Shown here in pieces: positions 19,624-56,118 of a stretch of DNA of 64,000 nt (its first letter is position 1; every line of letters starts with the position of its first letter). The position numbers and the translations under genes were made by a program. The notes beneath the pieces are model-generated. The model did no database searches. It saw only the letters and a program-made list of their open reading frames with translations, and was not told where the DNA came from. The stretch comes from Vampirovibrionaceae bacterium NZW_1234. GTDB lineage: Bacteria; Cyanobacteriota; Vampirovibrionia; Vampirovibrionales; JAGQHJ01. The stretch is from the NCBI GenBank assembly GCA_041697335.1, contig JBGUGD010000030.1, forward strand, positions 160,001 through 224,000. The letters run 5' to 3'.

Positions 19624-21045
19624 TTAGTTAAAGTGACGGTTTCCGCTGTAGAGCTTGTTTATGAAGTAGGTACGGTTTTGGGCAATCATATTGGCAAAAT
19701 AGTTGGCCGCGCGAGCTTGGATTTTGCGATCGGGATTCAGTAATCCATTCAACGCACTTTGCGAGACACGCTGTTCCCGGTCGGCATGTTTTTCCCCAAA
19801 GGCATCTCGACGAGACAGTTCATAAGCGGTTTCCTCGGCGGCCAGAGCAATCAGCTGGGGAAGATCATCATGTTGGATTTTATCCATCACAATTTGACGG
19901 ATTTTGGGTCGCGCTTTGAAGAGGTCTTCCACACGTTCACGGAAGTTGCCGAATTGATGCGGGGATTCCTGCACCCGTTTGGTTGCGCCGGTGATTTTGG
20001 TGAAGAACAGAATACCCTTCAAGCGAGTTGAGAGGTTTGCTGACTCCAAATTCTCCAGCGCTTCTCGGGTTTGTTGCAGCACGGGAGGTTCTTCATCTGG
20101 CGCGGGGGCGGGTTGAGAAGGATCCTGCAAGGCCTTTATTTCGGCTAACTCACGTGAGGCGAGAAAAGCGGTTTGCGCAACATCCATGCTTTGAATGCCA
20201 AAGTAGCTGGCATGGCGTCTGAACTCAGCTTCTAATGCCTTAGGTCCTTTAAATATACTGTGGATCTGTGTCACGAAGTGGCGGAATCCTTTAATCCATT
20301 GCCCCGAAAAAGTGGTGCCTTGCTCGGGTGTTTCTTTCGCTGTAACGAGGAGAAATTTGGGATTGTTTTTTCGGGCTTGGGACTTAAAAAACTCGGGATA
20401 CAGCTGGGATAAATCACCGGATTTAACAAAAGCTTTCAGGAAAAATTGTGCGGCATCGGCTTGCTCATCCTTATCTTTGGATACCAGGGCATTTAATTTG
20501 TCCATTAATAGAGGGTGTTGGAGTTGAAGAGGGCTGGCTTCACCGGCTTTGACTCCCAAGTCTACAAAGTGGAGAAAGTGGCCCACATGTTTTAAAAACC
20601 CTTTAGCTCCTTGCTGTTCATGGCGGGCCATCGGCAAGGTGGGCTCGTTCATCAGGTTGGTTAATGCCGCTTTAAACGGTTCGTTCTCAGCGGCAATCCG
20701 ATTCAGTGTTTTGGTATAAAATTCCGGCGATTTGGCTTTTTTCAGGTGGTCCATCATGGTTTTGGCTTGGCTCACACCCTGGGCGATACCTGAAAATAAG
20801 GCCTTGATTAGTTTAAAGGGCAAAGCTATTAGCTCATAAATGGCAGAAAAGAACTGTTGAAGAAGCGATGGGGGATTTTGAGCCTGTGAACTCTCAGTAG
20901 CGCCCGTCTTGGTGCGACCAGCAAAACGAATTGAATCAGCAGATGCAGCGGATAAGGTCACCTGGTGTCGGTTTGTCTGTTCAGTCAGGGTTGCACCAAG
21001 CATTCGGCTTGCGTAAGAGGGAGCCAGTCGAAGGGAGTCCACCAT
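19624..21045 (-). CDS. Hypothetical helical protein with RF-motif leader
   Basis: Likely start MVDSLRL at 21045; leader ends DSIRFAG; no recognised domain. Confidence 0.7.
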   Translation of the reverse strand: MVDSLRLAPSYASRMLGATLTEQTNRHQVTLSAASADSIRFAGRTKTGATESSQAQNPPSLLQQFFSAIYELIALPFKLIKALFSGIAQGVSQAKTMMDHLKKAKSPEFYTKTLNRIAAENEPFKAALTNLMNEPTLPMARHEQQGAKGFLKHVGHFLHFVDLGVKAGEASPLQLQHPLLMDKLNALVSKDKDEQADAAQFFLKAFVKSGDLSQLYPEFFKSQARKNNPKFLLVTAKETPEQGTTFSGQWIKGFRHFVTQIHSIFKGPKALEAEFRRHASYFGIQSMDVAQTAFLASRELAEIKALQDPSQPAPAPDEEPPVLQQTREALENLESANLSTRLKGILFFTKITGATKRVQESPHQFGNFRERVEDLFKARPKIRQIVMDKIQHDDLPQLIALAAEETAYELSRRDAFGEKHADREQRVSQSALNGLLNPDRKIQARAANYFANMIAQNRTYFINKLYSGNRHFN

Positions 21046-21173
21046 AGCATGTTCCTTGTTTCCTGAGGCGTGTACCGAGTATAACACCGCTCAAGATAAC
21101 TTTGTGTCGTGTTTTTCGTGAAGCGTTACAGATTGTTAATCAAGTTCAGGAAAGGGTGGTGGTGCGGCGGTAT

Positions 21174-33662: not shown

Positions 33663-34787
33663 TTATGCTGGCTGATGCGATAGAAGGTGTTGATATTCTG
33701 CGCTGGTTAAAGGGGGGACAGCTGCTAAGGCTAAATTTTCTTCAACATGGTTTGCTTGTTTGTGACCCACGAGTGGGGCCGTGACGCCGGGTGTTGAACG
33801 GGCAATCTGAAGGCAGGTTTGGGCAGGCGTCAGATTACCAATGGGGTTGAGATCGGCATTGAGTAAATGTCCTTGCATCAGGGGGACGCTGGTGAAAATG
33901 GATAAACCCAAGGCTTGGGCGGCATGGAACAGTGGGGTCTGACTGCCTCGAACCGGCTGATTGGGGCTTAATAATGCTTCTAAAAAAGCAAAGTTAAAAG
34001 GCACCTGAATAAACCGAAATCCATGGTGGGTTCCGCCAACTTCCTGAGCTATCTGGATGACGCTTTCCAAATCCAAATAGCGCTCGGTTTCATCAGGCGG
34101 GAGTCGAAAACAGTCCCAAGTGGCCATACCATAGTAGCGAATCTGATTTTGGGCACGGGCAGACTCATAAAATGTAAATGCCTCGCGAAGGCGATTTAAA
34201 AACATATGTCGCCCTACGTGAGCCAATTGCGATTCTGCCGCATTGTGAAGATACATTAAATCAATGGTCTCCAGGCCCAGGTTTTCTCGGCTCTGGTTCA
34301 ATTGAAACTCAAGAAATCGAGGCGTCATGCTATGACAATTACCAACAATGTCCTCCGGTGTAATCACGCCACTATTCAGGTAAGTCTCAATGCAATAGGC
34401 TCGGTAGTCCGGATTATTATCGGCATCTGCTGTCAAATAACCATTCTTCGAGCACACAAACACTTCATCCCGTTGTACGGTACCGTTGGTAAATAGGGTA
34501 CTCAGCGCTTTTCCCAAAGAACGTTCAGATGCTTGGTGACGGTAATTAATGGCCGTGTCGAGAACATTGATGGCTCCTGAGGCTATTGAAGTGATGGCTG
34601 CTTCCATCATCTGCGTACTGGTTTGAATATCAATATCGCCTAAGTAGGTTCCCATCCCCAAACTCGTGAGCACCAAGCCTTGAGGGGTTTTTCGGAAATG
34701 CCCCTGAGCCACCTGGCTCTGTCCTTCATGCCGAGCTTGATAACGTTGGGTCCCTTCTGAGGTCGCGTGACCGCTCCATTGTGTCAT
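33663..34787 (-). CDS. Aldo/keto reductase
   Basis: LGMGTYLG, LDTAINY, VFVCSKNG, IDLMYLHN, FIQVPFN, SVPLMQG. Confidence 0.88.
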   Translation of the reverse strand: MTQWSGHATSEGTQRYQARHEGQSQVAQGHFRKTPQGLVLTSLGMGTYLGDIDIQTSTQMMEAAITSIASGAINVLDTAINYRHQASERSLGKALSTLFTNGTVQRDEVFVCSKNGYLTADADNNPDYRAYCIETYLNSGVITPEDIVGNCHSMTPRFLEFQLNQSRENLGLETIDLMYLHNAAESQLAHVGRHMFLNRLREAFTFYESARAQNQIRYYGMATWDCFRLPPDETERYLDLESVIQIAQEVGGTHHGFRFIQVPFNFAFLEALLSPNQPVRGSQTPLFHAAQALGLSIFTSVPLMQGHLLNADLNPIGNLTPAQTCLQIARSTPGVTAPLVGHKQANHVEENLALAAVPPLTSAEYQHLLSHQPA

Positions 34788-34882
34788 CGGTGCCAATCTT
34801 TCTTAAGGAGGACTGCTTTTTGTTTATCATACCGCAGTTCTGATAGATAAAAATTCTTGCCGCGAAAAACTACGTGTGACTC

Positions 34883-34920
34883 TCCTTGCGACAAACAACA
34901 CGAAACGCATGTCGCAAGGA
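34883..34920. terminator. Hairpin or possible terminator
   Basis: Perfect 11-bp inverted repeat tccttgcgaca...tgtcgcaagga downstream of the minus-strand gene ending at 34953. Confidence 0.45.
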
Positions 34921-34952
34921 CACAAAAATAATGCTGAGTAAGGATCCGTGAG

Positions 34953-35345
34953 TTAAATCACGATGTCTAATTTATTCCCAGACTCAGGTGTAGGTGCTTT
35001 CGGGGCCCGAAAGGTCACGGGCATATTATCTGACACGCGGGTTAATAATTCATCTACGTGAGAGACATCTGCACCACGGGCACCGTTAAAGGTTTTTTCG
35101 GAATTGGCCACGTAGGCAAAAGATACGCCAGCATTGGCCAGCGTTCTGGCGCTTTCCATATTCTGTTCTTTGGCGACTCTGGTTTTTCGACTGTCATCTG
35201 AGAATTGGATGACAAAGTGATCCTTGGGAATATTGTCGCCGGTTCGATTAACTTGCCATTGGGGAAACTGATCGGACAAGGCCATCGGTTTGACGGTTTG
35301 CCAGTGCGAATTATGGATCAGCGCTTTACCACGAAATTGAATCAT
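34953..35345 (-). CDS. Hypothetical protein (MIQFRG start, GNKLDIVI end)
   Basis: ORF with GAGGTGA RBS; no recognised domain. Confidence 0.65.
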   Translation of the reverse strand: MIQFRGKALIHNSHWQTVKPMALSDQFPQWQVNRTGDNIPKDHFVIQFSDDSRKTRVAKEQNMESARTLANAGVSFAYVANSEKTFNGARGADVSHVDELLTRVSDNMPVTFRAPKAPTPESGNKLDIVI

Positions 35346-35805
35346 AGCGGTTCACCTCACTATTCCCGTTTCTTCTTCCTGTGTTCCTGTTCGACTCGAA
35401 CTTATCGCCAAGATTGAATTCAAATTAATATTAAAAAATAGATGAACCAACCTAGTTATTGGCGACAGAGCATCCCCAGCGGGTCACCAGTCACATTTTC
35501 TAAAACCTTACGATTTAATCATATTTTGTCCATTCGATCAATACGCGTCATTGTTATGCGACGCGGAGCGAAAAATTTCGGTTGACATGACTGTCTGTGA
35601 TCGATAGGGTTAATACCGCCAATAGGCTTTTTAAGAGGAACCTTAGCTCTTCAAGTCGTGAAATAAAACTTTACTTGACATTGTGATAAGTAAGTTTGAT
35701 CATAAGTCAGTTATTATTCATATCACGAATAATAAATTAATTCTTTTCTATAACCTCTTAAACAGGCAGTATCGCATTAGGTAGTTGCAGAGTGAGATAG
35801 CAATA

Positions 35806-38058
35806 ATGAGAATAGCGAACTTAACTTCAGGGAATATGTTGCAGCGCACCAATCGGGGTGAGCAAGGTACAAAAAAAGTGGCACAGGGTAAACTGGGGAC
35901 TCAGTCTCCTTCGATGCCGACTGGCTATATGTCACTTTATGATAACGCTGGCCTTGCTGGGGTTCGATTCGGTGTTTCACTGAAAGGTGTTTTAAGTAAA
36001 TTCACCAACGCTGAATTTGATATTGCAGGCACCATGGCGCTTGAGCGCGAAGTGCCCATGCTGGACTACCTGAATGAGGTGGTGGATAAACCCGCTTTGC
36101 AGCGAAATACCAAACAGCGTATCTATGACATGATCACAGCCCGTGGAACGGACGATAAAAAAGTTCTGGGGCGTGAAGTGAAGACCTACAAGTTTTTTAC
36201 CGAACCTGACAATCCTGATGATGCCTTATTAGGTATGGAAGAACAGCTTCATACTGTTGTTGAACATTTACAGCAAGCAGCTTTGGGGACCGATGCCGGT
36301 AAAAAGCTTTTAATTCTGGTGGGTGGTCCTGGTAGCGGTAAGTCTACCGTCGCTCGGATTATTGTTCGAGGGTTGGAAAACTATTCTCGAACTGCCGATG
36401 GCGAACGCTACACGCTGAAATGGAAGTTACCTAAAGATGTGGCTCGCGCCATTGGTTTTGATAAACAGGAGTTTGTGGAAGAGGTCTACACTGATCCCGT
36501 CAAGCTGTTGCCTCTTGAAATGCGAAAAGATTTGGAAAAAACGTTAAACCGCAATAGCAAATTGCCCTATCCGATTAAGTTGTCCAAAGAAGGGTTACCA
36601 CCGGCCTCTCAAAAGCTTTACGACAAATTGCTGGCGTATGAAATTCAAAATGGTGGTCAAGATGGTGCTTTTGAGCGAGTTCTGCAAAAATATGCAATGG
36701 CCAAACGCTTTAAGGTCAGCTCTGTCCACCGGACCGGTTCGGGTAGCTTAGCCGCTGTTGATGGAAAGAGCTTAGACGTGACCCACATGTCCGGGGGCTC
36801 CAAAATGATTAAAGCGGCCACCTCCAGCGAAGGGGATCCGTGGGCCTATGATTTTGCCTCCGGTGAACTGTTTGCGGCTTCCGGTGGGGTCATGGAATTT
36901 ATCGAAATTCTGAAGCTGGATAAAGAGCACTTGTTGCCCATCTTGACGCTGAACGAAGAAGGCAAGGTGAAGCCCTCCAAGCAGCCACAGGTGGAAGTAG
37001 ACGAATTTGTTATTGCCCACACCAACTTGCCGGAATACGAAGCCAAGGCGGCTGATCCGGAAATGGCGGCAACCTGGGATCGGATGAAGATCGTTCGCTT
37101 CCCCTACAATACGGCAATTAGCTCTGAGCAGGCCATCTATGAGCGCAGCTTGCCTCTCTTGCATCAGCAAGGTATCAATGTTGCTCCGCATACGATGCGT
37201 ACGGCTTCCTTGTGGGTCATCTTGAGCCGACTGCTGCCAGCCAAGGATCGGAAGTTTGATCCCTTGACCAAAGCCCGTCTTTATAATGGCGAGCCGAATA
37301 AAGATATCGGGATGGCCGAAATTCGGGCCCTGAAAAAAGAAGGTGTGAAGGGCCGTGAAGGGATGGAAGGCATCTCGCCTCGGAAATTGAAAGATAACGT
37401 TATTCCGGCAATTATGACGCATCCGGATGTTCAGAAAACCAAATCCATTGATGGTTATGGTGTTTTGACCATTATTCGGGATAAGTTGGATTCCGGTGAA
37501 ATTGAGTTGGAAGGCGAAGTGAAAGACAAAGCCTACCAAAACCTGGAAATTGCTTTAAAAGATTTGGATGAGCACGTGAAAGAAGATGTCACGGAAGCCA
37601 TTGCCGGGGATCGGGATAACCTCAATGCCATCTTGGATGAATACCTGCGTAACGTGGAAGCCTTTGTGGATAAGAAAGATGTGAGCGATTGGCGTGGGAT
37701 TTCCTCTGGCCCCAGTGAACAGCTGATGCAATCCATCGAAAAGAAGATGGGGGTTTCCGACAATCGGACACACCGCCAAAAGCTGAATGCCATCTTAGGT
37801 TCCTATCGTCGTGATGGTAAGCCTATTGATCTGGATCTGTTCCCGGATATTAAAAAGGCCATTGTCCAACATGAGTTGGAACAATTGGAGCGCAACATTC
37901 CATGGAAGGCCTTGTGTACCACGGAGCCGTTGTCCACCAAGAAACAAGAAGATTATCGCCAGGGTGTCATTGGCAACCTGAAGAAAAAGGGGTACGACGA
38001 AGAGTCTGCACGTCACGCGCTGGCTCGGGTTGGTTCTCTGTTCAACACCAATAAGTAA
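35806..38058 (+). CDS. prkA: PrkA/YeaG-family AAA+ ATPase (serine kinase family) with N-terminal leader
   Basis: Walker A LVGGPGSGKST, DPWAYDFASGELFAASGGVMEFIEILK, VIAHTN, WDRMKIVRFPY, APHT, EGMEGISPR, C-terminal GYDEESA. Confidence 0.9.
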   Translation: MRIANLTSGNMLQRTNRGEQGTKKVAQGKLGTQSPSMPTGYMSLYDNAGLAGVRFGVSLKGVLSKFTNAEFDIAGTMALEREVPMLDYLNEVVDKPALQRNTKQRIYDMITARGTDDKKVLGREVKTYKFFTEPDNPDDALLGMEEQLHTVVEHLQQAALGTDAGKKLLILVGGPGSGKSTVARIIVRGLENYSRTADGERYTLKWKLPKDVARAIGFDKQEFVEEVYTDPVKLLPLEMRKDLEKTLNRNSKLPYPIKLSKEGLPPASQKLYDKLLAYEIQNGGQDGAFERVLQKYAMAKRFKVSSVHRTGSGSLAAVDGKSLDVTHMSGGSKMIKAATSSEGDPWAYDFASGELFAASGGVMEFIEILKLDKEHLLPILTLNEEGKVKPSKQPQVEVDEFVIAHTNLPEYEAKAADPEMAATWDRMKIVRFPYNTAISSEQAIYERSLPLLHQQGINVAPHTMRTASLWVILSRLLPAKDRKFDPLTKARLYNGEPNKDIGMAEIRALKKEGVKGREGMEGISPRKLKDNVIPAIMTHPDVQKTKSIDGYGVLTIIRDKLDSGEIELEGEVKDKAYQNLEIALKDLDEHVKEDVTEAIAGDRDNLNAILDEYLRNVEAFVDKKDVSDWRGISSGPSEQLMQSIEKKMGVSDNRTHRQKLNAILGSYRRDGKPIDLDLFPDIKKAIVQHELEQLERNIPWKALCTTEPLSTKKQEDYRQGVIGNLKKKGYDEESARHALARVGSLFNTNK

Positions 38059-38088
38059 CGCCTTTTTCAGCCAATCAGGAGAACGTTC

Positions 38089-40152
38089 ATGATACAGGTG
38101 TTGTATCGGAATCCGATTCATAATTTGCCTATGGCGAAAACCGTGAAGGTGCAGCGCCCTACAAAGGCTCTTCCTCAAGCGGTTGTTCGCTCCGGCTCGG
38201 CCTTGGCCAAGGTGTCCTCTGTGCCGCTTACTGCGACGCAATGGCAGGCCTATGTCTTGCCAAAATCCGATCGGCAAACCCGCTTTGGGATGAACTCGGA
38301 TATTTTCTCTCCCGGTGATATCCTACTGGGCGATCATCCTCCGGATGATGAGCTGGATGAGCTGGATGCGTCTCGTAAGTACCAGTGGGATATTATGACC
38401 CGGTCTCGGCCCGGATTCCCTCAAGGATGGCTACAACCGGAAGATACCGTATTTGTGGTCACCGATCAGATGCGGATGATGCAGGCCAATGCCCGAAATG
38501 GGTTTCCGCTTCGCTATAATCACTATAGCTGGGGTGAGGCCTTTAACCGGCTCTATCAAATGCAGGGCCATGGGTTGATGCGGATTTACGAAAGCGTCAT
38601 CAATACCAAGCCTTCGGTTGCCTATTTGTTGGATTTCAATCCGGTCTATGCACAGAAGCTGGTTATCGGACACGTGTTTGCACACACCGACTTCTTTAAG
38701 AATAATATCCGGTTCCAGGACTCGAACCGAGACATTATGCGAGTTATGGCCGACAATAAGCGCGCCATTGCCAAATATGCCTCTGACCCGATGATTTTAC
38801 GTAAAAGCGTCGGGAAAACCACCCCGGTGGAGCGGTTTATTGATGATTATAAGACGATGGAATGGCTCATTGACATGAGTAAATCCGCACCGCCGCCACT
38901 AACCCCCTATGGGCAGGCAACGGATCCATCTACGGTGGCTCAGGTGGATTTGGACATGGGGTTAAGCCGTCAAAAACTTGGCTTGGGTGGCTTGATGCGA
39001 GACTTTATTGTCTCTGAAGACGAGCGTTCGAAAGCCGTAGATGATGCGCTGACCCGTCGGGAAAATCGAATCAAAAACATTCCGCCAGAACCCACGCGAG
39101 ATGTCTTGGGCTTTTTAATTCAGCACTCTAAGTCGCTTGAACCTTGGCAGCGGGATATTTTAACCCGTCTTCGCGAAGAATCGTACTACTTTGCTCCTCA
39201 GATTCAAACCAAGGTTATGAATGAGGGGTGGGCGACCTGGTGGCATACCCGAATGGGTGCTGAAGGGGTCTATAAACCGGATGAGATGGTTCCGGTTGCC
39301 AAGATGATGGCCGGTGGTGAAGCTCATGACCCTCAGGGGCTTAACCCTTATTTGGTGGGTCGCACCATTTTCCATAATATCTATGAAAAAGCGGGGCGGG
39401 GTATTCCCATTGATGTGCCCGAGGAAGAACTGGTTAAACGCTATAGTATTGATGAGCTGATGGCGCTGAAAAAGAAACCCATTGACGATGAGTTGGGCAT
39501 CAAGGCCATTCAGCATGTGCGCAAATATGAAGATGATATGTCGTTCTTGCGCAAATATTTAACCGAGGACGTTGCCCGTGAATTGGGTCTGTACAATTAC
39601 GAAGAGGTAACCGATTTCCGGGGTAATACGGAAGAGGTTGTGACTTCCAAAGATTTCAATGCGGTCAAATCTCGGATTCTTCAAAATTATGACAATGGCG
39701 GTATGCCTATCATTGAAGTCGTCAATGGGGACTATCGCGGTCGCAGTGAATTGTTGCTGCGTCATGTCCATCTGTTCCAGGATCTGAATCGCAACGACGC
39801 CAAAGAGACGTTGAAATCGGTTTATCGGATGTGGGGTATGCCGGTTCACCTGGATACCTTCTACACCGCACCCGTGGATCCCAACCTGATTAACAGTTTG
39901 GTTCAATCGATCCGTAATGCCCGACAATATGGCCAAGGCAAAGCCTATTGGCGTGGCAGTGAAAAGACGTTACAGGAAATGGAACAAGAGTTGCATAAAC
40001 TGCAATCCAACAAGACGAAAGTCCCCATCCGATTCTCGACCGAAGATGGGAAGGATGTGTCCATTCGCGTCCTGAATGACAAAGGGGATACCACCAAAAA
40101 CTTCGATCCCAAAGATTTCGTGATTAAGGCAGACAGCGATTGGTATTGGTAG
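38089..40152 (+). CDS. spoVR: SpoVR/YcgB-family protein with N-terminal leader
   Basis: RYNHYSWG, IYESVIN, GHVFAHTDFFKNN, YFAPQIQTKVMNEGWATWWH, LNPYLVG, ELLLRH. Confidence 0.9.
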   Translation: MIQVLYRNPIHNLPMAKTVKVQRPTKALPQAVVRSGSALAKVSSVPLTATQWQAYVLPKSDRQTRFGMNSDIFSPGDILLGDHPPDDELDELDASRKYQWDIMTRSRPGFPQGWLQPEDTVFVVTDQMRMMQANARNGFPLRYNHYSWGEAFNRLYQMQGHGLMRIYESVINTKPSVAYLLDFNPVYAQKLVIGHVFAHTDFFKNNIRFQDSNRDIMRVMADNKRAIAKYASDPMILRKSVGKTTPVERFIDDYKTMEWLIDMSKSAPPPLTPYGQATDPSTVAQVDLDMGLSRQKLGLGGLMRDFIVSEDERSKAVDDALTRRENRIKNIPPEPTRDVLGFLIQHSKSLEPWQRDILTRLREESYYFAPQIQTKVMNEGWATWWHTRMGAEGVYKPDEMVPVAKMMAGGEAHDPQGLNPYLVGRTIFHNIYEKAGRGIPIDVPEEELVKRYSIDELMALKKKPIDDELGIKAIQHVRKYEDDMSFLRKYLTEDVARELGLYNYEEVTDFRGNTEEVVTSKDFNAVKSRILQNYDNGGMPIIEVVNGDYRGRSELLLRHVHLFQDLNRNDAKETLKSVYRMWGMPVHLDTFYTAPVDPNLINSLVQSIRNARQYGQGKAYWRGSEKTLQEMEQELHKLQSNKTKVPIRFSTEDGKDVSIRVLNDKGDTTKNFDPKDFVIKADSDWYW

Positions 40153-40161
40153 GGGTGACGT

Positions 40162-41952
40162 ATGATTATTAATCAACTTGGACAATTCATACAGAAACCG
40201 ACAAACACGGCTCGCCCCAGTGTTTCTCGGCGACCTGTGATGCCTGCGCTGAACCAGGATCTGTTTCAAATCTCCAGAGCGCAATCGGGCCAGAGTCGGC
40301 AAGTTCGTTTTTCGGGCGATGACGATGGCATGACCGATCCGGATACCAAGCGTTTCTGGGATATTGTCAAAGGTGTTGAGACGCCGGAGCACTTGCTGGA
40401 TCAAATTACCCGAGGCGGTTTAAAAATTGGCCAGGATGGTGGTGTGACGTTGCCGATGCCGACCATTAACCGCCCCACGTTCTCTTATAAACCCAATAGC
40501 GATAGCAATGATGATGGCGACGGCGATGGCGATGGGGATGGTCAAGGTGGACCAGGACAAGGCCCCGGTAAAGGTGGCGGTGTTGGGAGCAATCCTGGTG
40601 CCGGACCAGGTGACGTCATTGGTCAGGATGGCGATGGCGAAGGTGATGGCCAAGGTGGCAAAGGTGCTGGCCAAGGCGGTGGTGGTGGTGGCCGTGAAAA
40701 ATGGGAACGCCGCCTCACGGGAACCGAAGTTGCGAAATTGCTTGAGCAATTGGAACTCCCCTATTTGCAAGACAAAGGGCGGGGCCAGTTCCAACATGCC
40801 GGAATTCGGTGGAATAACAAGCGTCAACCGCCGCCGGGGATCCCGCTCAGAGAGTCGTATGATCCGGCCATTGCACGTGAAACATTCCACGTGAGTCAGG
40901 AACAAAAGAAGTTTATTGGCGAGCTTTATCAGGTGGCCTTTGGGCGAGAGCCTCAGGATGACGAGCTGGATTATTGGAAAGACGTACTCAAGGAGCTTGA
41001 GGCGGATAACCAGATGGATCTGGAAAACGTTGAGCCGTTGTTGATTGGCGAGTTTTTAACCTCGGAGCAGTATCAACAGCAGTTTGGCGGCAAAACCGAT
41101 AAGATGATTTCGGATGCCTACAAGCTGGCCATCGGCAAAGCGCCTTCTCGTCATGGGATTGAACTCTGGAGCAGCAAATTGGAAACCGGCTTAACGGTTA
41201 AAGATATGCCGCTTGCGCTTTACCAGATGTTTGGCGACAAGATGGACAGCCGACGTCGGAATATCGTTTTTAATCCCGATAATCTGATTATTGCACCCAA
41301 GGAAGTGCGACGCATTGACTGGAAAGAACACAAGAAGCCTTTTTCTCAGGCCGTTATTTTCTATGTCATGGATGTTTCCGGATCCATTTCCGATCAGGAT
41401 AAAGAAATGGCCCGGATGAACAACTACTTGCTCTCGACCTGGGTGAAATACCAGTATGGTTTGAAAGTGGCCAAGATGCAGGGCAAAAAGTACAACGACA
41501 AAGAATTTTTCGGCAAAAGTGTCGCTGAGCGTCATATCATTTTTACCGAGACTGCCAAAGAAGTGGATGCCGATGAGTTTTACACCACCTCTCAATCCGG
41601 TGGAACCAGTATTTCATCGGGGTTGAAGATGGTCGAAGAGATTATTGACAAAGATTATCCGCCCAAGGATTGGAACGTGTATGTGTTTGTTTATAGTGAC
41701 GGGGACTCTTGGAGCGACAACGATAAGTCCGTCAAGATTATTCAGGACTTGGAGAAAAAAGGGATTAATCTCATGGCATACGGTCACTTAGGGCAACGAA
41801 GCAGCATTTCCGGCAGTAATTTTGCCAATGTGCTCAATGAAAAATTCAAGGAATCCAAGACCGTGCGTCTTGCTGTCCTGGATCGTCCTGAGATGAAAAC
41901 CTATAAAGAAGCCATAAAAGCCATGTTGGCGAAAGAGAAGGAGGCTGTGTAA
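40162..41952 (+). CDS. YeaH/YhbH (DUF444) vWA-domain protein with leader and inserted domain
   Basis: Gly/Asp-rich linker, LELPYLQDK, MIDAS MDVSGS, SGGTSISSG, YPPKDWNVY, SDGD. Confidence 0.85.
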   Translation: MIINQLGQFIQKPTNTARPSVSRRPVMPALNQDLFQISRAQSGQSRQVRFSGDDDGMTDPDTKRFWDIVKGVETPEHLLDQITRGGLKIGQDGGVTLPMPTINRPTFSYKPNSDSNDDGDGDGDGDGQGGPGQGPGKGGGVGSNPGAGPGDVIGQDGDGEGDGQGGKGAGQGGGGGGREKWERRLTGTEVAKLLEQLELPYLQDKGRGQFQHAGIRWNNKRQPPPGIPLRESYDPAIARETFHVSQEQKKFIGELYQVAFGREPQDDELDYWKDVLKELEADNQMDLENVEPLLIGEFLTSEQYQQQFGGKTDKMISDAYKLAIGKAPSRHGIELWSSKLETGLTVKDMPLALYQMFGDKMDSRRRNIVFNPDNLIIAPKEVRRIDWKEHKKPFSQAVIFYVMDVSGSISDQDKEMARMNNYLLSTWVKYQYGLKVAKMQGKKYNDKEFFGKSVAERHIIFTETAKEVDADEFYTTSQSGGTSISSGLKMVEEIIDKDYPPKDWNVYVFVYSDGDSWSDNDKSVKIIQDLEKKGINLMAYGHLGQRSSISGSNFANVLNEKFKESKTVRLAVLDRPEMKTYKEAIKAMLAKEKEAV

Positions 41953-41954
41953 CG

Positions 41955-44684
41955 ATGGTTGACTCCATTTCTTTTTCTTCTTTGCCAGCGTTGGTTCGGC
42001 GTCGGTCGCTGTCGACCCCGGTAATGCCCAGAAAACCCATTGTGGTTACCCCGGGGTTAAAATCCTCAGCGTTTGGGTTGGCCAAGGGTGTTCATTACCA
42101 GGCCTATGCCTTGCCTCGTTTCTCAGCGGCAAACACGACACCCGTTGTGAAAGAAGCGCCAGCCCAAACCCAAAGTGGCGCTGCTGCTGAAAACGCTGAA
42201 GCCCAGGCGGATGCGTTGCTGAGTAAAATCACGACCGACACGAAGGTAAAATTCAAAGAAACCAAGCCGATGATGAGCTTGAAAGAGTTTATCTCGCTGG
42301 TTTACCAAGATCCCTATAAATACCTGCCTACTGCCAGTCACTATGCGGTTCGCGGTTTGAAGTCCTTCGGAACCGAGAATAAACGGGTGATGGGTGAAGA
42401 TGTGGTGGCGCACAAGTTTGTGAAAGCGCCCTGGAAATCCCAAGCCTTAAACGAAATTCCCGGGCTCCTGGGTCAAGATGAGGTGATTTCTCAGATTATT
42501 GAAACCCTGGAAGATTTTTCCCGAACCGGGAAGCAGAATCGGATGATTTTGCTTGTCGGCCCCAAAGGCAGCGGAAAAAGTGAAACCTGGCGCCTGGTCT
42601 CCAAGGCCCTGGAACTCTATTCACATCGACCTGAAGGGGTGCGCTATACGTTGAACTGGGTCTTCCCCAAGAGCAATCCCTTCGATATTATTCGCCCCTT
42701 AATGACGGAAGACGATTACAATCAGTGGGAAAAGACCAAGCAAGGCTCTTCTACCGTATTGTCTCCCAAAAATATCGGGGCACTTCTAGAGTCTAATTTA
42801 AATATTCACCCGCTGTTCTTGTTGCCGGTTCAGGATCGCGAAGCTTTAATCCAGGATCTGCACCGCCGGGGTAAGATTCAGAATACGGCTGAATTTAGTT
42901 ACTTCATCAACGGTAAACTGGATTCCTACTCCCAGAAGATTCTTGATGCTCTGACCGAACACTACGACGGGGATATGAGCAAGGTGTTCAACCACGTGAT
43001 GGTCGAGCGCTGGACGATGTCTGAACAAAGTGGTAAGGGTCTTGGCATGGTGCCGCCTGCGGCAAACCGAGATGCGATGTTAAAACAGGTGACTCCCGAT
43101 GTTCGATGGGATAGGTTCCCAGCCTTCCTGCAACGAGCTGGCCTGATGAAACTGGTGGGAGCCTTGCCCAATGCCAATGGCGGCTTGTTTAACATGGAAG
43201 ATATGGGCCGTAACATGGACCCGACCCGTTATGTGTATCTCCTGATCACCGGCGAAACAGGGGAGACCATTATTGACACCCATGGCCAGGATGATGCATC
43301 CACAGTTCGTGAACAATTGGATGTGGTTTTTGTAGGCAGCGCCAACCCGGAAAGCATCTTAAAAATGATGAAAGAAGGGCAATGGGATGCTTTGTCGAAG
43401 CGGACCAAATTGATTTATGTGCCGTATTTGCGCCAATATCGTGAAGAAGCCCAGATTTACGAACCCTTGCTGGCCAATCAGCGTCAACGGGGTCGAAAGA
43501 TCGATCCGTTTGTCAATGAAGCCTTCCCGTTGTTTTTGACGACCACGCGTTTGCTGCCCGTCAATGCAGATAATGCGGCTTATAAAAAGGTCAATAGCGA
43601 TGAATTGACAGAAGGCTTGAAAAAGCTCGATCCGTTACGCAAGGCGTTGCTGTATCAAGGGGAAGATTTAAATTCCTTTGAAAGTTCGCCGAATAAGGTG
43701 CCGCCTTTTGAACGACGGATTCAAGAAGCCCTGCATGATCATGTGGCCCTGGTCAAACATGAGCATGACCCGGATTCTCGCTCGGACATTGTCTCGAACT
43801 TTGAAGGCAGTCATGGCATCGATCCTCGTGAAGGTGAGGATTTGATGAAGCGGATATTAAACTATGATCCGGAGTCGCCGGTGACGGTCTTGACGATGTT
43901 TCAAGCTCTTGCCGATGTGGTCAAAACGGATATGAAATATCAGCAGGATTTGGTGCAAGCCATTAAAATGGATCCCAATTTCTTTGGCAAGTTTCAGAAG
44001 CCCGGGGCCAAGAAAGATGAAAGCCCGGCCTTTGTTCCGACGCCCATTGATTTGCTGAAGATGGTCGAGGGCCATATGCGACGGAAAATGCAGGTGGAAA
44101 TCAAAGAGGCCTTGAAGGTCTATCATGAGCCCAAGATCTATGCCGACCAGATTCGCAAGTATATGGCCCATGTTGAGGCCCGTAACAATACGACTGAAAT
44201 AGACGATCCGGAGCTGCGTTCACCAACATCCACGGATAAAACACCCGATCCGAATTTCATGAAGCGAATTGAATTGATTATTGCGCCTAGTGCCGTGAAA
44301 TCGGATAAGGATTTAGAAACCTTCCGGCTGGAAATGATGGGCCGTCAAAAGCGATGGGATCGGAGCCAATCCGTACAGGACAACATCTTGCGGATTTATG
44401 AGCCCGAGGTAAAAACCTTGATGACCCATGATGAAACCAAGTTCCAGGAACACCTGGATCGGTTGCTGGCCGATCTGCCCAAGGTCTTGCGTAATCCCAA
44501 TATTTACGACAACCAGGCCGATAAAAAAGATCATGTGGAACAAATTTTAGGAGGTATTGCAAAACTCACCGAGCGCGGTATACCCAAGGAAGCGTTGCCT
44601 CAAATGGTGGAGTGGGCCTTTGATCCGGCTCGAAACTTTATCTCCGATGGTACATTTAAAATTAGGAGGCCCTCGCAGTCATGA
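41955..44684 (+). CDS. Second PrkA-family AAA+ ATPase with N-terminal leader
   Basis: NRMILLVGPKGSGKS, LELYS..PEGVRY, GALPNANGGLFNMED, FVGSAN, VPYL, FEGSHGIDPRE. Confidence 0.82.
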   Translation: MVDSISFSSLPALVRRRSLSTPVMPRKPIVVTPGLKSSAFGLAKGVHYQAYALPRFSAANTTPVVKEAPAQTQSGAAAENAEAQADALLSKITTDTKVKFKETKPMMSLKEFISLVYQDPYKYLPTASHYAVRGLKSFGTENKRVMGEDVVAHKFVKAPWKSQALNEIPGLLGQDEVISQIIETLEDFSRTGKQNRMILLVGPKGSGKSETWRLVSKALELYSHRPEGVRYTLNWVFPKSNPFDIIRPLMTEDDYNQWEKTKQGSSTVLSPKNIGALLESNLNIHPLFLLPVQDREALIQDLHRRGKIQNTAEFSYFINGKLDSYSQKILDALTEHYDGDMSKVFNHVMVERWTMSEQSGKGLGMVPPAANRDAMLKQVTPDVRWDRFPAFLQRAGLMKLVGALPNANGGLFNMEDMGRNMDPTRYVYLLITGETGETIIDTHGQDDASTVREQLDVVFVGSANPESILKMMKEGQWDALSKRTKLIYVPYLRQYREEAQIYEPLLANQRQRGRKIDPFVNEAFPLFLTTTRLLPVNADNAAYKKVNSDELTEGLKKLDPLRKALLYQGEDLNSFESSPNKVPPFERRIQEALHDHVALVKHEHDPDSRSDIVSNFEGSHGIDPREGEDLMKRILNYDPESPVTVLTMFQALADVVKTDMKYQQDLVQAIKMDPNFFGKFQKPGAKKDESPAFVPTPIDLLKMVEGHMRRKMQVEIKEALKVYHEPKIYADQIRKYMAHVEARNNTTEIDDPELRSPTSTDKTPDPNFMKRIELIIAPSAVKSDKDLETFRLEMMGRQKRWDRSQSVQDNILRIYEPEVKTLMTHDETKFQEHLDRLLADLPKVLRNPNIYDNQADKKDHVEQILGGIAKLTERGIPKEALPQMVEWAFDPARNFISDGTFKIRRPSQS

Positions 44685-45961
44685 CCGTTGCTCTGACCCC
44701 AGTGAATCAGTTTGTGTCCTCACGTTTATTGGCCAGTAAAGGGGGTGTTTCTCCCAAGCGGCCTGTATCCCGCCAGCCGCGTTTTGCCGGTCAATTCAGT
44801 CAGCCAGTAACGGCACCGGTATCCAATCAGCAATTGGTGTCGGCGCTCAAGGGCCAGGTTAAGTTTGGCTCCTTGGGACAACTGATCAGTATTGCCCCGG
44901 GGTATAAGTTGGGTGAAGCTCGGGCAGCTCATAACCAGCCCCTGAATCGGATGCCCAGCATTATTTTGGAAAGCGCCACCGGCGATAAAATCGCGATCGA
45001 TCCGGTTTCGGCCAATTTTGAGCGCAATATTATCGAGTTTACCGAAGATTTTAATCAAGACTCGGCTCGCGCCTTTAATGCCCAGGTCGATTTTCTGAAA
45101 AACAAAATCCTGGATAAACGTGCTAAGGGCGAAATTAAAGACCCCAGTGAAGAAACGGTTCATATTTACATCAATAGCCCGGGTGGGATGATTATCTCGC
45201 TTTATGCCATGATCGATGCTGTTGATACGTTGAAAAAAGCCAATATCCCCGTGGCTACCTACTGCCGTGGCATGGCTGCCAGTTGCGGTTCGGTATTGTT
45301 TGCCCTGGGTACTCCCGGCCAGCGTTATATGACCCCCCATGGGCGTGTTTTGGTGCACCAACCGTTGGGTGGAAGTTATGGTCAGGCAACGGATATCGGG
45401 CTTCAGAACGAAGAAATTCAAGAGATGAAAATTAAGCTGACCGATATTTTGTCCCTCTCTGCGCTGGAGGGCAAAATCATTCGATTGCAGAAAGAAGTGG
45501 ATCGCCTGTCGGAATCCGAAAATCAGTGGTCCCCGAATGTACAGGCCCGGCAAAAGCAAATTGCGCAATTTGAGGCGGAGAAAGTTCGGATTCGTAAAAC
45601 CCAGGAAGCTCGCACTCAACAGAAAATTTACATTACCCAGGCCGAAATGCTGAAAGCAGAAGACCGGAGTCAAGAAGCCGAAGAGGCCTTGGCTAAAGGC
45701 CAAAAGCTCGTAACCGATACCATTGCAGCCGTCACCAGCGAAGCCCGTGAGCAGGAGCGTCAGCGTTTAACCGAGGTGATTGCCAATTCCGATGGTGCGA
45801 CGAAGACTACGGCAGAACGAGAATTGAGACGCTTGGATGATCGCAAGGTCCCCTATAGCTCGACTCGCGAACGTATGGCCCAAGTCATGGAGCGCGATCG
45901 CTGGTTGACTGCTGAAGAAGCCGTTGAGTACGGCTTAGCGGACGGTATTGTCACCCGCTAA
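44681..45961 (+). CDS. clpP: ClpP-family peptidase with N-terminal leader and large coiled-coil insertion
   Basis: IYINSPGG, GMAASCGS (Ser201), VLVHQPLGG (His226), GQATDI, MERDRWLTAEEAVEYGLAD (Asp406). Confidence 0.85.
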   Translation: MTVALTPVNQFVSSRLLASKGGVSPKRPVSRQPRFAGQFSQPVTAPVSNQQLVSALKGQVKFGSLGQLISIAPGYKLGEARAAHNQPLNRMPSIILESATGDKIAIDPVSANFERNIIEFTEDFNQDSARAFNAQVDFLKNKILDKRAKGEIKDPSEETVHIYINSPGGMIISLYAMIDAVDTLKKANIPVATYCRGMAASCGSVLFALGTPGQRYMTPHGRVLVHQPLGGSYGQATDIGLQNEEIQEMKIKLTDILSLSALEGKIIRLQKEVDRLSESENQWSPNVQARQKQIAQFEAEKVRIRKTQEARTQQKIYITQAEMLKAEDRSQEAEEALAKGQKLVTDTIAAVTSEAREQERQRLTEVIANSDGATKTTAERELRRLDDRKVPYSSTRERMAQVMERDRWLTAEEAVEYGLADGIVTR

Positions 45962-53850: not shown

Positions 53851-56118
53851 TTGTTCGTGATAGTCCCTGTACATCACGTCCCGGCACAATCAAGTGTTGT
53901 CCCCCCGAAAGCAAAAGGCTACGGGTACCCGCCAAAACACACCTATCTCCCAGCAGTTCAACACAATAGCCTATTTACCGCCCCCCGATTCGGGACGGAT
54001 AAGGAAGTGCATCGCACTGGGGAGACGAAGTTTATTCATGTCTTGCAACATGCGGCAGCCCCCTTTCGAGAATTGCTGCAAGGGCTCGCATTGGCGGTTC
54101 GCCGTTTTGGTCAATGGTTGGGCAATGTCTGGTTTCGGATTATGCGCATGGTGTCTCCGGTTTCGGTGCCCCAGCTGCGTGATGCTCTCAACCCGTTGAT
54201 GGTTCAAGCTCAACATCGGTTCCCCATTCCCATGGTTCGTGCCAAGCTCCTCAAAGAAGGGTCGCCGGATGCGCTTTTGCCCTATCGGGAGTTGGAGCGC
54301 CGCTATCGGCGGAATCCGGAGCAGCGGGTACGCTTGCTGGAAAACTTTGTGACCTCCGAAGCCACGGCTTATTTGGCCAGCCATCTGCTGGCCTTGCAGG
54401 AAGCCATCCGAAATCCGGGCCAACCCCTGCGGATTGATCGAAGCCACATCCCCGCGGCGGTTCGGATGGGGGTGGATGATGCCAATGCCATCGTGGCCCG
54501 GCGCACCAAAGAATTGCTTTATGCCAAGGACAAGCAGCCCATTGCGGACAACCTGTATAACCTGATTCTGGAGTCACCCAAGGTGGCCTTGCACGAGCAT
54601 TATCGTGGGTGTGCGCCCATGGCCATGGTGCGGGCGTGGTTTATGGCCCAGAATGACCCCATTGCCTTTAAGTCCAATGATGAGTTGGAAGAATACTGCC
54701 GGATTGATCGTCTGTTTACCCCGGACGGCGAGGGCCCGCTGTATCAACCGAGTTTGGATCGATACCGCTGGAAGAACGACAATATCGTCTCGGTCTCCAT
54801 TAATTCAACGGAGACGGCGTATATGGCGGCCTATATGTATACCCTTCGTTCCGGGTTGGAAAATGTCCGCTACTTCGAGTATCGCCTAAACCCCATCAGT
54901 AAAGGGGTAAAGGACTCTATCGCCTACGCAAAGGCCATCCAGCAGGGTATTCACGATGGCAAGATGTTTCTCAAGGAATCTCGGGGGCAGGATATTGATG
55001 CCAACCTGATCTATTCCGCCGACCGGCAGCCCAAACCCGGGGTGGAGGTGAACAATCCGCTGGCGCCAAAGATTGATGATCGGATTTGGCTGGCGATGAA
55101 GATTATTGTTCTGGCCATCAAGTCTCGTCTGATGGGGATGCATGTGACCGGGTTTGATGTTCAGGGCTCTGAAGCCAACTACGCCATTATGGACTTTGAA
55201 CCCGTGGCTCGGATGCTGGCCCGTTGGAATCGGGTGGCCAAGGCCATGAACCAGATGAAGATGCCGGGCTGGGAGAAGGACTACCGTGTGGGTGCAACGC
55301 TTCACTCGGGTGAAACGCCACTGTCCGGCTTGATTAGCCATAAAGATGCGCCCATTACCGGGGCCGAATCTGTGGAGCGTTCCGTGGAGCTGTTCACCCG
55401 GAAGGACACCTCGCCCATGAATCTGATGGCCGTGGGGCAGGCGATTCAACAGTTACTCAAGACCCCGGACACGCAACTGGATGACGCCACCACCTTACGG
55501 GTCATCGATCTGCTGTTGCCCAAGGAGGACCGACGGAAACTGGGGACAAGTCGCGGGGCCTTGAAAGCCGAATCCCAGGCCATGCCTGCGCCCAATGAGC
55601 TGCCCCCGGATCAGGACCCGGACATTGATACCCCGGTGCGCATTGGCCATGGGGTGCAGCTGAAGTTCGGGCCGCGTTGGTTGATTGATGCCTGCTGGAA
55701 GCACAAGATTGGGTTTGAACAATGTCCCAAGAGCAATGTGCAGACCGGGGCCGTGTCCTACTATAACGAATTGCCCACCCTGGTGATGTCTCGTCCCCGG
55801 GACGAGGGCCACGGGTTGATGGTGTCCATCAGCCGCGATAACGGGACGACCTCCAAGACGAATATGCCCAACGAACTGGTGAAGTTGACCCGTCACCTGA
55901 AGGCCCGTCACGAGGATCGCAAGCGCTTCCAGATCAACGGGATTCAAACGGCCTTTCTCTTTGACCCGGAGCTAAAGACCAAGATTCGCCAGGAGATGTT
56001 ACAGCGCTTCCACCGTCTGGAGTCTCGCCCGGCTTATGGTGAAGTCATTCGTCACGAGCAGGATCCACGTCTGTTTAAGCGGCTGATTGAAAATCGCCGG
56101 GGGGCTCACACGGCCTGA
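53851..56118 (+). CDS. Adenosine/AMP deaminase-fold protein with long N-terminal extension
   Basis: PKVALHEHYRG, ENVRYFEYR, VTGFDVQGSE, TLHSGE, RIGHG, EQCPKSN, SISRDN. Confidence 0.78.
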   Translation: MFVIVPVHHVPAQSSVVPPKAKGYGYPPKHTYLPAVQHNSLFTAPRFGTDKEVHRTGETKFIHVLQHAAAPFRELLQGLALAVRRFGQWLGNVWFRIMRMVSPVSVPQLRDALNPLMVQAQHRFPIPMVRAKLLKEGSPDALLPYRELERRYRRNPEQRVRLLENFVTSEATAYLASHLLALQEAIRNPGQPLRIDRSHIPAAVRMGVDDANAIVARRTKELLYAKDKQPIADNLYNLILESPKVALHEHYRGCAPMAMVRAWFMAQNDPIAFKSNDELEEYCRIDRLFTPDGEGPLYQPSLDRYRWKNDNIVSVSINSTETAYMAAYMYTLRSGLENVRYFEYRLNPISKGVKDSIAYAKAIQQGIHDGKMFLKESRGQDIDANLIYSADRQPKPGVEVNNPLAPKIDDRIWLAMKIIVLAIKSRLMGMHVTGFDVQGSEANYAIMDFEPVARMLARWNRVAKAMNQMKMPGWEKDYRVGATLHSGETPLSGLISHKDAPITGAESVERSVELFTRKDTSPMNLMAVGQAIQQLLKTPDTQLDDATTLRVIDLLLPKEDRRKLGTSRGALKAESQAMPAPNELPPDQDPDIDTPVRIGHGVQLKFGPRWLIDACWKHKIGFEQCPKSNVQTGAVSYYNELPTLVMSRPRDEGHGLMVSISRDNGTTSKTNMPNELVKLTRHLKARHEDRKRFQINGIQTAFLFDPELKTKIRQEMLQRFHRLESRPAYGEVIRHEQDPRLFKRLIENRRGAHTA

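Follow-up and report, generated by a model that had tools for sequence, protein, structure and literature searches.

A short Arg-Phe motif in the N-terminal leaders of a five-gene PrkA-SpoVR operon and of about 190 other proteins in a Vampirovibrionaceae genome

Introduction

Why should every protein of a conserved cytoplasmic stress module carry an additional N-terminal extension? The question is raised by a five-gene operon of Vampirovibrionaceae bacterium NZW_1234 (genome G000), located in a stretch of 64,000 nucleotides (the window, G000:C5:160001-224000) and encoding two PrkA proteins (PrkA1 and PrkA2), SpoVR, YhbH and a ClpP-like protein. The original prediction was that all five carry a leader with a shared R-F-[G/S/A] motif and that the leader is a common targeting tag, possibly for delivery into a prey cell. 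Here we report that a short linear motif near the N-terminus is common to the five operon proteins and about 190 others, that it is under selection at the protein level and that it is lineage-specific.

The same three families make up the PrkA-YhbH-SpoVR module of Bacillus subtilis and the YeaG-YeaH-YcgB module of Escherichia coli, where, as in many bacteria, the genes are adjacent. The present operon differs in having five genes, with a second, divergent PrkA, a ClpP-like protease and a motif-bearing leader on each protein. In the accessible part of the literature nothing was found on leaders of PrkA-SpoVR-YhbH or YeaG-YeaH-YcgB, and no description of this tag was found in the literature on Vampirovibrio or Melainabacteria secretion or under "RFG motif". 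A predatory lifestyle of the lineage is described in the accessible text of the Vampirovibrio genome paper (PMC4451040); the same text proposes a type IV secretion system (T4SS) route and no N-terminal tag, and the term "signal peptide" does not occur in it.

Results

The operon and its five proteins

The five open reading frames (ORFs) are tightly packed on the forward strand, with intergenic gaps of 30, 9, 2 and -4 nt.

35785..38058, forward strand: PrkA1 gene, 757 residues from TTG 35785 (ATG 35806, codon 8, is also possible); leader approximately residues 1-91
38089..40152, forward strand: SpoVR gene, 687 residues; leader approximately residues 1-100; PF04293, PF24755
40162..41952, forward strand: YhbH/DUF444 gene, 596 residues; leader approximately residues 1-56
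41955..44684, forward strand: PrkA2 gene, a divergent PrkA paralogue, 909 residues; leader approximately residues 1-105
44681..45961, forward strand: ClpP-like gene, 426 residues; disordered leader (residues 1-106), ClpP core and helical insert (residues 236-387)

All five families were confirmed by Pfam and NCBIfam. PrkA1 is a member of the PrkA/YeaG family (PF08298 from residue 92, E = 2.8e-45; PF06798, E = 3.1e-34), as is PrkA2 (PF08298, E = 2.8e-18; PF06798, E = 1.1e-11), and P-loops are visible in the PrkA proteins (GPGSGKS, GPKGSGKS). SpoVR belongs to the SpoVR/YcgB family (PF04293, E = 8.5e-87; PF24755, SpoVR_C, E = 4.5e-12) and YhbH to the YhbH/YeaH family (PF04285, E = 3e-39 over profile positions 230-400 of 418; NF003711, E = 7.6e-51). 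YhbH also contains a Gly/Asp-rich low-complexity stretch (DGDGDGDG...GGGGGG; residues 113-180, window 40500-40700) and, outside the DUF444 model, a DUF4214 insert at residues 247-278.

The ClpP-like protein has the peptidase S14 fold (PF00574, E = 1.4e-37). S201 and H226 are invariant in six of six aligned sequences, the ERD box has its Asp in the window protein and in five of the six, and the ClpP core is modelled confidently by AlphaFold2 (AF2). It is not a canonical ClpP (about 200 residues, no large additions): its 426 residues include the 106-residue leader and the insert, and its NCBIfam score is 131.7 bits against a cut-off of 249. The canonical ClpP is encoded elsewhere (C1:1901-2440) in the arrangement tig-clpP-clpX. 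The insert (window 45386-45841, about 150 residues of long helices) separates the handle region from the last ClpP helix; it is absent in four of five aligned homologues and shorter in that of locus L025. Two more large proteins with a ClpP domain, of 711 and 726 residues, are encoded at C15:42857-44992 and C14:100628-102808 (L177, L178). The domain lies at about residues 410-620 after long N-terminal regions; one of the two proteins has a Lys/Ser-rich leader and the other has IRFE and LRFK near residues 58-67, and similar genes occur in G006, G001 and G040.

Upstream of PrkA1 is a 440-nt AT-rich gap (35346-35784; GC content 0.449 in the 2-kb bin 34001-36000), presumably holding the operon promoter.

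The leaders and their motif

In these proteins the conserved domains begin late. Position 3 of AAA_PrkA aligns at residue 92 of PrkA1, position 29 of the SpoVR profile at residue 121 and position 8 of CLP_protease at residue 107 of the ClpP-like protein. Leaders are thus present on all five proteins as predicted, but the predicted length of 50-90 residues has to be corrected to about 56-106. No Pfam or NCBIfam model matched the leaders at E <=0.01. Every leader holds a motif of the type hydrophobic-[R/K]-F-[G/S/A].

35962..35973, forward strand: tag motif VRFG, PrkA1 residues 60-63, R at 35965
38278..38289, forward strand: tag motif TRFG, SpoVR residues 64-67, R at 38281
40303..40314, forward strand: tag motif VRFS, YhbH residues 48-51, R at 40306, just before the conserved DPD..RF box
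42114..42125, forward strand: tag motif PRFS, PrkA2 residues 54-57, R at 42117
44777..44788, forward strand: first tag motif of the ClpP-like protein, PRFA, residues 33-36
44858..44869, forward strand: second tag motif of the ClpP-like protein, VKFG, residues 60-63; F62 is invariant in six of six aligned homologues

The Arg codons lie exactly where the original prediction had placed them. With an interior rate of 8.2e-4 per residue for [RK]F[GSA], the chance of at least one such motif per leader is 0.05-0.08, and jointly about 1.6e-6. Among 2863 five-gene runs the operon is the only one with the motif within 100 residues in all five proteins.

As far as the sequence can show, the leaders are translated. 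Ribosome-binding sites precede the first ATG of three genes.

38077..38081, forward strand: AGGAG, 7 nt before the first ATG of SpoVR
41939..41944, forward strand: AGGAGG, 10 nt before the first ATG of PrkA2
44664..44669, forward strand: AGGAGG, 11 nt before the ATG of the ClpP-like gene

No AGGAG or AGGAGG was found before the domain-adjacent Met codons of the same three genes. The ATG of the ClpP-like gene overlaps the stop codon of PrkA2. The YhbH start has only a weak G-rich site, and PrkA1, the first gene, has no clear ribosome-binding site, its start being TTG 35785, ATG 35806 or later.

The leaders have a net charge of +2 to +10 and contain 1-10 Asp plus Glu in 60-105 residues; in the SpoVR leader most of the acidic residues follow the motif. 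Residues 1-106 of the ClpP-like protein, the one leader that was modelled, are predicted to be disordered (AF2 predicted local distance difference test below 50, alignment of six homologues). The predicted lack of a hydrophobic Sec core holds: the most hydrophobic 15-residue segments reach Kyte-Doolittle values of 0.25-1.22 in the five leaders, below the threshold of 1.9 used for signal or membrane segments. Nor do the leaders resemble signals of the twin-arginine translocation (Tat) route, S/T-R-R-x-F-L-K. Although the YhbH and PrkA2 leaders contain RR, a hydrophobic region is missing from all five, and the tag itself has a single Arg.

Enrichment of the motif at N-termini across the genome

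A crude gene set was built for G000 from the longest ORFs of at least 100 residues, greedily chosen without overlap (3020 proteins, 85% coding). In an unbiased scan of residues 1-60, RFG is the most enriched tripeptide (178 observed against 39 expected from protein interiors), with PRF, LRF and VRF also in the top six. Within the first 90 residues the strict motif [VILPMAT]RF[GS] is seen 230 times against 37 expected, in 224 of the 3020 proteins, which corresponds to an excess of about 190 carriers. The shared motif of the original prediction thus passes the genome-wide check. Counted in bins of 15 residues from the N-terminus, the strict motif occurs 66, 60, 52, 27, 21 and 4 times (6.2 expected in each); its frequency is at background beyond residue 75, and the leader before it is 0 to about 75 residues long.

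The enrichment is specific to the reading frame: the first 80 codons give [VILMPA]RF[GSA] 233 times when read in frame and 48-80 times in the other five frames, and codons 100-180 read in frame give it 32 times. The codons of the motif are mixed (Arg CGC, CGT, CGA, CGG and AGA; all four Gly codons), in proportions close to genome usage. This combination implies that selection acts on the protein.

The logo reads S-[PVLI]-R-F-[G>S]-[S/A/G]. Before the motif the leaders are enriched in Ser (1.65-fold), Pro (1.54-fold) and Arg (1.41-fold), are also Thr-rich and are depleted in Glu (0.43-fold) and Asp (0.61-fold); after it the composition is ordinary, with Asp enriched at +5. A set of 124 long leaders showed neither a second enriched element nor an aromatic residue at a fixed place. 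A "QAY" element upstream of the motif in the SpoVR and PrkA2 leaders was considered as a general feature and rejected. Chance should account for about 37 of the 230 hits (about one in six), which makes any list of single proteins noisy.

Carriers of the tag

The operon is one client of the tag among about 190, and the tag is not special to it. For the most part the carriers are orphans or additional copies of chaperones, proteases and enzymes of the cytosol. We compared 93 tagged proteins from 20 regions chosen for tag density with 93 random untagged proteins from the same regions; 58 of the tagged and 33 of the untagged could not be placed in a Pfam family at E <=1e-4. Among the 35 tagged proteins that could be placed are enzymes that are normally cytosolic and whose domain starts late (first domain residue in brackets): Iso_dh (54), Aldedh (94), ECH (61), guanylate kinase (30), DAGK (51), methyltransferase (75), NUDIX (67) and NTP_transferase (130). 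Other carriers are RtcB, EF-hand, HEAT, calpain-like, trypsin-like, exo/endo-phosphatase, FHA, FtsH-like and ClpB-D2-like proteins. Tagged enzymes usually have untagged paralogues. Such paralogues exist for the tagged aldehyde dehydrogenase (ALDH), lactate/malate dehydrogenase (LDH/MDH), isocitrate dehydrogenase (IDH), guanylate kinase, RtcB and abhydrolase, and the paralogue alignments start at residues 3-23 of the untagged and 19-87 of the tagged copies. Tagged proteostasis paralogues comprise three FtsH-like, two ClpB-like and one M16-like protein; two of the three FtsH-like proteins have predicted membrane segments.

A hydrophobic 15-residue segment within 60 residues after the tag is present in 13 of 197 tagged proteins, compared with 21% of untagged proteins (first 70 residues). 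We draw no conclusion from the 13, which have Tat, lipoprotein or Sec-like segments, because about 37 chance hits at a rate of 21% were taken to give about 13. Tagged genes cluster, with 27 adjacent pairs against 12.7 expected. A foreign origin of the tagged genes was ruled out, since their GC content (0.517 against 0.510) and that at third codon positions (GC3, 0.555 against 0.552) match the genome. Carriers turn over quickly: only 10 of 25 tagged proteins from the samples of family f1 (see below) have any match in G000, and one exo/endo-phosphatase orthologue pair keeps the tag at 30% identity.

Two islands are particularly dense, with eight tagged genes in C25:30.5-50.5 kb and seven in C8:48-68 kb (L037, L038). 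One run of four consecutive tagged genes encodes a HEAT protein of 1012 residues, an orphan of 721 residues, a ClpB-D2-like AAA protein and an orphan of 308 residues. A small family of tagged orphans of 193-223 residues (C21:53727-55134, C29:183650-184231), in which the motif is followed by a strand-like pattern (RFGQ[AVI]Y...), had no Pfam or protein-atlas match. Two further genes of the window belong here.

53851..56118, forward strand: tagged gene, 755 residues, PRFG at residues 45-48, adenosine-deaminase-like C-terminus
19624..21087, reverse strand: leader-bearing gene, orphan of 487 residues, IRFA at about residues 53-56 (Ala variant)

The operon in relatives

Of 41 genomes of the order, 12 have SpoVR, G000 among them; SpoVR was also found in the control genomes of E. 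coli, B. subtilis, Thermus thermophilus and Haloferax volcanii. A search with a smaller alignment (A2) gave seven related loci. All 11 primary loci (L018-L028) have PrkA1 and SpoVR, 10 have YhbH, 9 have PrkA2 and 6 have an adjacent ClpP-like gene; L026, where YhbH is missing, runs out at the end of its contig. The strict motif was counted as [VILPMAT][RKQHY]F[GSA] in the first 150 residues of the open frame (for YhbH, in the stretch before the conserved DPD..RF box) at the primary loci other than L026. It is present in 36 of 45 leaders but in only 1 of 45 interior control windows of equal length: in PrkA1 in 10 of 10, SpoVR 5 of 10, YhbH 8 of 10, PrkA2 8 of 9 and the ClpP-like protein 5 of 6. 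If the second motif position may be any residue, SpoVR rises to 9 of 10. The motif place reads [VIL]-x-F-[GSA], mostly VYFG, in all ten PrkA1 relatives and Y-x-G-[VIL]-[RKH]-F-[GSA] in PrkA2, and the ClpP-like leaders hold 2-4 copies. As overall protein identities among the relatives are 25-44% and F62 is invariant, the motif is among the best-kept features of the leaders.

Leaderless forms bear out the claim that the extensions are lineage-specific. G022 has a second, three-gene PrkA-SpoVR-YhbH set (L029, G022:C1:122000-141500, not a primary locus) whose PrkA opens straight into the conserved domain, and in family f5 the same holds for SpoVR (L064, L065). SpoVR and YhbH of L029 nonetheless carry RPRFG and TVKFG. 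In family f9, outside the order, a five-gene operon including the ClpP-like gene (L174, G082:C17:28000-47999) has leaders but no RF motif; in this family the motif place reads, for example, HMGLGV in the ClpP-like protein and IGRGITGQ in SpoVR. The leaders are therefore older than the RF motif. G030 has a four-gene operon with motifs and no ClpP-like paralogue, its only ClpP being the canonical one.

Taxonomic reach of the enrichment

The reach of the tag was measured as Phi-RF[GSA] (Phi, hydrophobic) per 1000 N-terminal positions against the interior rate, using the same crude gene caller on small samples. The rates are 1.16 against 0.16 in G000 and, in family f1, 1.33 against 0.17 in G003 (120 genes; the sample includes the operon locus, which gives 5 of the 11 hits) and 1.02 against 0.30 in G004 (99 genes). 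The samples of G003 and G004 have GC contents of 43.5% and 52.6%, a difference which argues against a compositional artefact. Enrichment was not seen in the samples outside f1: in family f3, G030 gave 0.28 against 0.14 (177 genes), G020 0.25 against 0.18 (132 genes) and G006 0.30 against 0.20 (164 genes); G005 of family f2 gave 0.10 against 0.13 (347 genes), G106 of f5 0.28 against 0.16, G057 of f9 0.20 against 0.17 and G065 of f7 0.10 against 0.10. Looser patterns gave no clear signal in these samples either. A smaller tagged set in f3 is possible.

SpoVR and PrkA had no match in G004 (92% complete). Since G004 is enriched all the same, the operon seems to be a client of the tag and not its reader. 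The operon's ClpP-like protein and PrkA were considered as general readers and rejected, because G030 has the motif without a ClpP-like protein and G004 is enriched with no PrkA or SpoVR found.

Search for a reader and an export route

Absence was called with single Pfam models on the G000 assembly, which is 94.75% complete. In G000 there was no match to VirB4 of T4SS (PF03135), to the phage-type contractile sheath (PF04984), to TssC (PF05943) or to ClpS (PF02617). As these marker genes were not found, the tag cannot be a signal for a T4SS, a type VI secretion system (T6SS) or an extracellular contractile injection system (eCIS) in this genome, and an N-degron route following a cut between R and F would lack its usual reader, ClpS. 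Export through an accessory SecA2 was rejected: of 17 genomes searched, 16 gave a SecA match above the family cut-off, G000 among them, and each of the 16 gave only one. Two secretins were found in G000, one of the type II secretion/type IV pilus type and one of the Tad type; an injectisome secretin was not found.

G000 holds two complete flagellar-type type III export cores (L169-L171, L180-L182). The first set lies on C2, with flgBC-fliEFGHI and fliPQR-flhBA at 99-104 kb and 180-186 kb. The second is divergent (23-51% identity to the first) and split over three loci: rod genes-fliF2-fliH2-flhA2-fliI2 at C32:10-21 kb, a fliMN-like gene with fliO2-P2-Q2-R2 at about C8:66.0-70.0 kb, and flhB2 at C29:178.7-179.8 kb. 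The fliOPQR2 locus adjoins the densest tagged island, with 8 tagged neighbours against 1.9 expected, an association noticed post hoc. Within the order, 39 of 41 genomes have two FlhA genes, and a single one was seen in each of the two others, the incomplete genomes G029 and G039.

Discussion

That the five leaders share a common targeting tag, as originally predicted, is upheld in so far as the tag is conserved in the operons and enriched genome-wide; delivery to prey found no such backing. VirB4, sheath and TssC were not found, and flagellin is untagged. Even so, the reading we prefer, tentatively and at somewhat less than an even chance, is that the tag is a Sec-independent sorting signal that ultimately serves prey delivery. 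In this proposal a receptor in the cytoplasm would read the tag and a defined set of soluble proteins would be taken to one common destination. The motif would be the recognition element and the Ser/Pro/Arg-rich, acid-poor leader a flexible handle, possibly for threading or cleavage. ATP, GTP or NAD is required by many carriers (two PrkA, three FtsH-like, two ClpB-like, guanylate kinase, ALDH and IDH among the ATP or NAD type), and they must for this reason act in a cytoplasm, their own or that of the prey; in this predatory lineage the prey cytoplasm would be the more probable end point. As a route, the only candidate to emerge is the second, divergent flagellar-type type III export apparatus, and the PrkA operon would be a client of the tag. 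Sorting is favoured by the translocation-like composition of the leaders and its shift at the motif, by the second type III core, by carriers that are orphan-rich, fast-turning-over, clustered and in this respect effector-like, by extra paralogues standing beside housekeeping copies, and by the predatory lineage. Its most specific form, in which about 6% of the proteome bears the S-Phi-R-F-G leader motif as a label for the prey cytoplasm, including a complete, ATP-dependent stress and proteostasis kit (two PrkA, SpoVR, YhbH, ClpP-like, FtsH-like and ClpB-like proteins) together with extra central metabolic enzymes, maybe through the second flagellar-type apparatus, we regard as doubtful.

Several observations weigh against sorting for export. 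The motif lies 0-75 residues from the N-terminus, a position unlike that of classic type III signals, which occupy the first 20-25 residues and have no consensus. Flagellin has no tag, and the other two loci of the second export set show no excess of tagged neighbours. The second apparatus is order-wide, yet enrichment was not seen in the sampled genomes of f3 (three) and f2 (one), with 132-347 genes each. The PrkA/SpoVR/YhbH module, FtsH-like proteases and ClpB-like chaperones would be odd cargo for injection. Among the hits, chorismate synthase, L14, RimM, an RNA recognition motif (RRM) protein and YdjM are evidently false; the gene calls are crude. Export of the tagged proteins is putative and the reader hypothetical.

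A processing site or conditional degron, at which a cytoplasmic protease system clips the leader or destroys the protein and so switches a whole class of accessory proteins at once, as between an attack and a growth phase, appears to us rather unlikely. The composition does change at the motif as at a pro-sequence boundary, with acidic residues depleted before it and Asp enriched at +5; leaders vary freely in length between 0 and about 75 residues; proteases and unfoldases are among the tagged proteins (the ClpP-like protein, two PrkA, three FtsH-like, two ClpB-like and the M16-like protein); and the consensus S-Phi-R-F-G-[S/A] resembles the ClpX loop of this genome, GKSMGFGASAP. The likeness to ClpX, however, comes down to four residues, ClpS had no match in the 94.75% complete genome, G030 keeps the operon motif with only the canonical ClpP, and leaders of 50-100 residues are long for degrons. 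A cytoplasmic recruitment motif, binding a scaffold or hub (a polar or attachment-site structure, a condensate or a protein compartment) that gathers about 190 clients with the proteostasis kit, would explain why the carriers resemble a compartment proteome of metabolic enzyme paralogues, chaperones and proteases. It would also suit the membrane-anchored carriers, in which the tag precedes the anchor and by the positive-inside rule lies on the cytoplasmic side, and the 2-4 motif copies of the ClpP-like leaders would allow multivalent binding. We nevertheless judge it unlikely: no scaffold or shell gene turned up, though no systematic search was made, and the many fast-turning-over orphans, with 10 of 25 tagged proteins of the f1 samples matched in G000, fit effectors better.

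Two narrower explanations fare worse. A motif serving only assembly within the operon, with the five proteins docking on each other (for example PrkA rings on a ClpP-like ring), is disfavoured and very improbable. It would account for a motif in all five proteins, in several copies in the ClpP-like one, and for a motif found order-wide in the operon when genome-wide enrichment is seen only in f1, but not for 230 N-terminal motifs in the genome where 37 are expected, for the motifs of the G030 operon, which has no ClpP-like paralogue, or for the enrichment in G004, where neither PrkA nor SpoVR was found. An artefact, in which the leaders are untranslated open sequence upstream of the true starts or the motif is a nucleotide-level signal, is scarcely credible. 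The uncertain start of PrkA1, with no clear ribosome-binding site, and the use of longest ORFs for the gene set would allow it; against it stand the strong ribosome-binding sites at the first ATG of three genes, ORFs that abut or overlap the preceding gene, frame-specific enrichment with all Gly codons and mixed Arg codons in use, and retention of the motif at 25-44% protein identity and in samples of 43.5% to 52.6% GC. The preferred reading, a sorting signal, can be set beside known systems.

As such a signal the tag would act in the manner of other N-terminal address labels, namely type III signals with shared chaperone-binding motifs, transit peptides, RxLR/PEXEL motifs and Photorhabdus virulence cassette (PVC) leaders; in sequence, position or machinery it appears to match none of these. 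Type III and flagellar export signals are likewise N-terminal, Ser/Pro-rich and acid-poor without a hydrophobic core, and the genome has a second export core; here, however, a sharp motif of 4-5 residues lies 0-75 residues in, no injectisome secretin was found and flagellin is untagged. Organellar transit peptides and presequences have FGLK-type motifs and the 'R-2' site (R-x|x-S) of the mitochondrial processing peptidase, and no consensus as sharp as the tag. They share with it leaders of 30-100 residues rich in Ser, Thr, Pro and Arg and poor in Asp and Glu, an Arg-aromatic-small motif at the change of composition, and extra paralogues beside housekeeping copies that lack the leader, yet the host of the tag is a bacterium without a known internal organelle. 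RxLR and PEXEL host-targeting motifs resemble the tag as short N-terminal leader motifs on the products of hundreds of fast-evolving, mostly orphan, clustered genes; they follow a Sec signal peptide, which the tagged proteins mostly do not have. Cargo of PVC/eCIS bears disordered N-terminal packaging leaders of about 50-70 residues, on otherwise unrelated proteins as here, but the genome gave no match to a phage-type sheath or to TssC. Outside secretion, the 'IGF' loop, which docks ClpX onto ClpP, has a comparable pattern (S-Phi-x-F-G-[A/S]), and SMGFGA of the ClpX encoded here may be set beside S-[PVLI]-R-F-G-[S/A] of the tag; the tag differs in having Arg for Gly and in sitting in an N-terminal tail, not in an AAA+ ring.

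For the stretch 35700-45000, 0.32-0.72 of the sampled words were found in public sequencing runs labelled hot-spring or microbial-mat metagenome; among the listed runs none was an RNA run containing the stretch.

Few bacterial sorting signals combine a sharp consensus with hundreds of clients; Sec, Tat, the lipobox and C-terminal sorting tags are examples. Should the tag prove to be such a signal, it provides a list of candidate effectors or clients for an uncultured predatory lineage and a sequence handle with which to find the receptor, and it would show the co-option of the conserved cytoplasmic stress module PrkA-YhbH-SpoVR. Were prey delivery to prove true, the sorting system would be an undescribed one, a bacterial counterpart of RxLR/PEXEL motifs or transit peptides. 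If the motif is instead a degron or binds a hub, it would still define a large post-translational regulon. Whichever reading holds, start sites in these genomes will be mis-annotated by gene callers that cut such leaders off.

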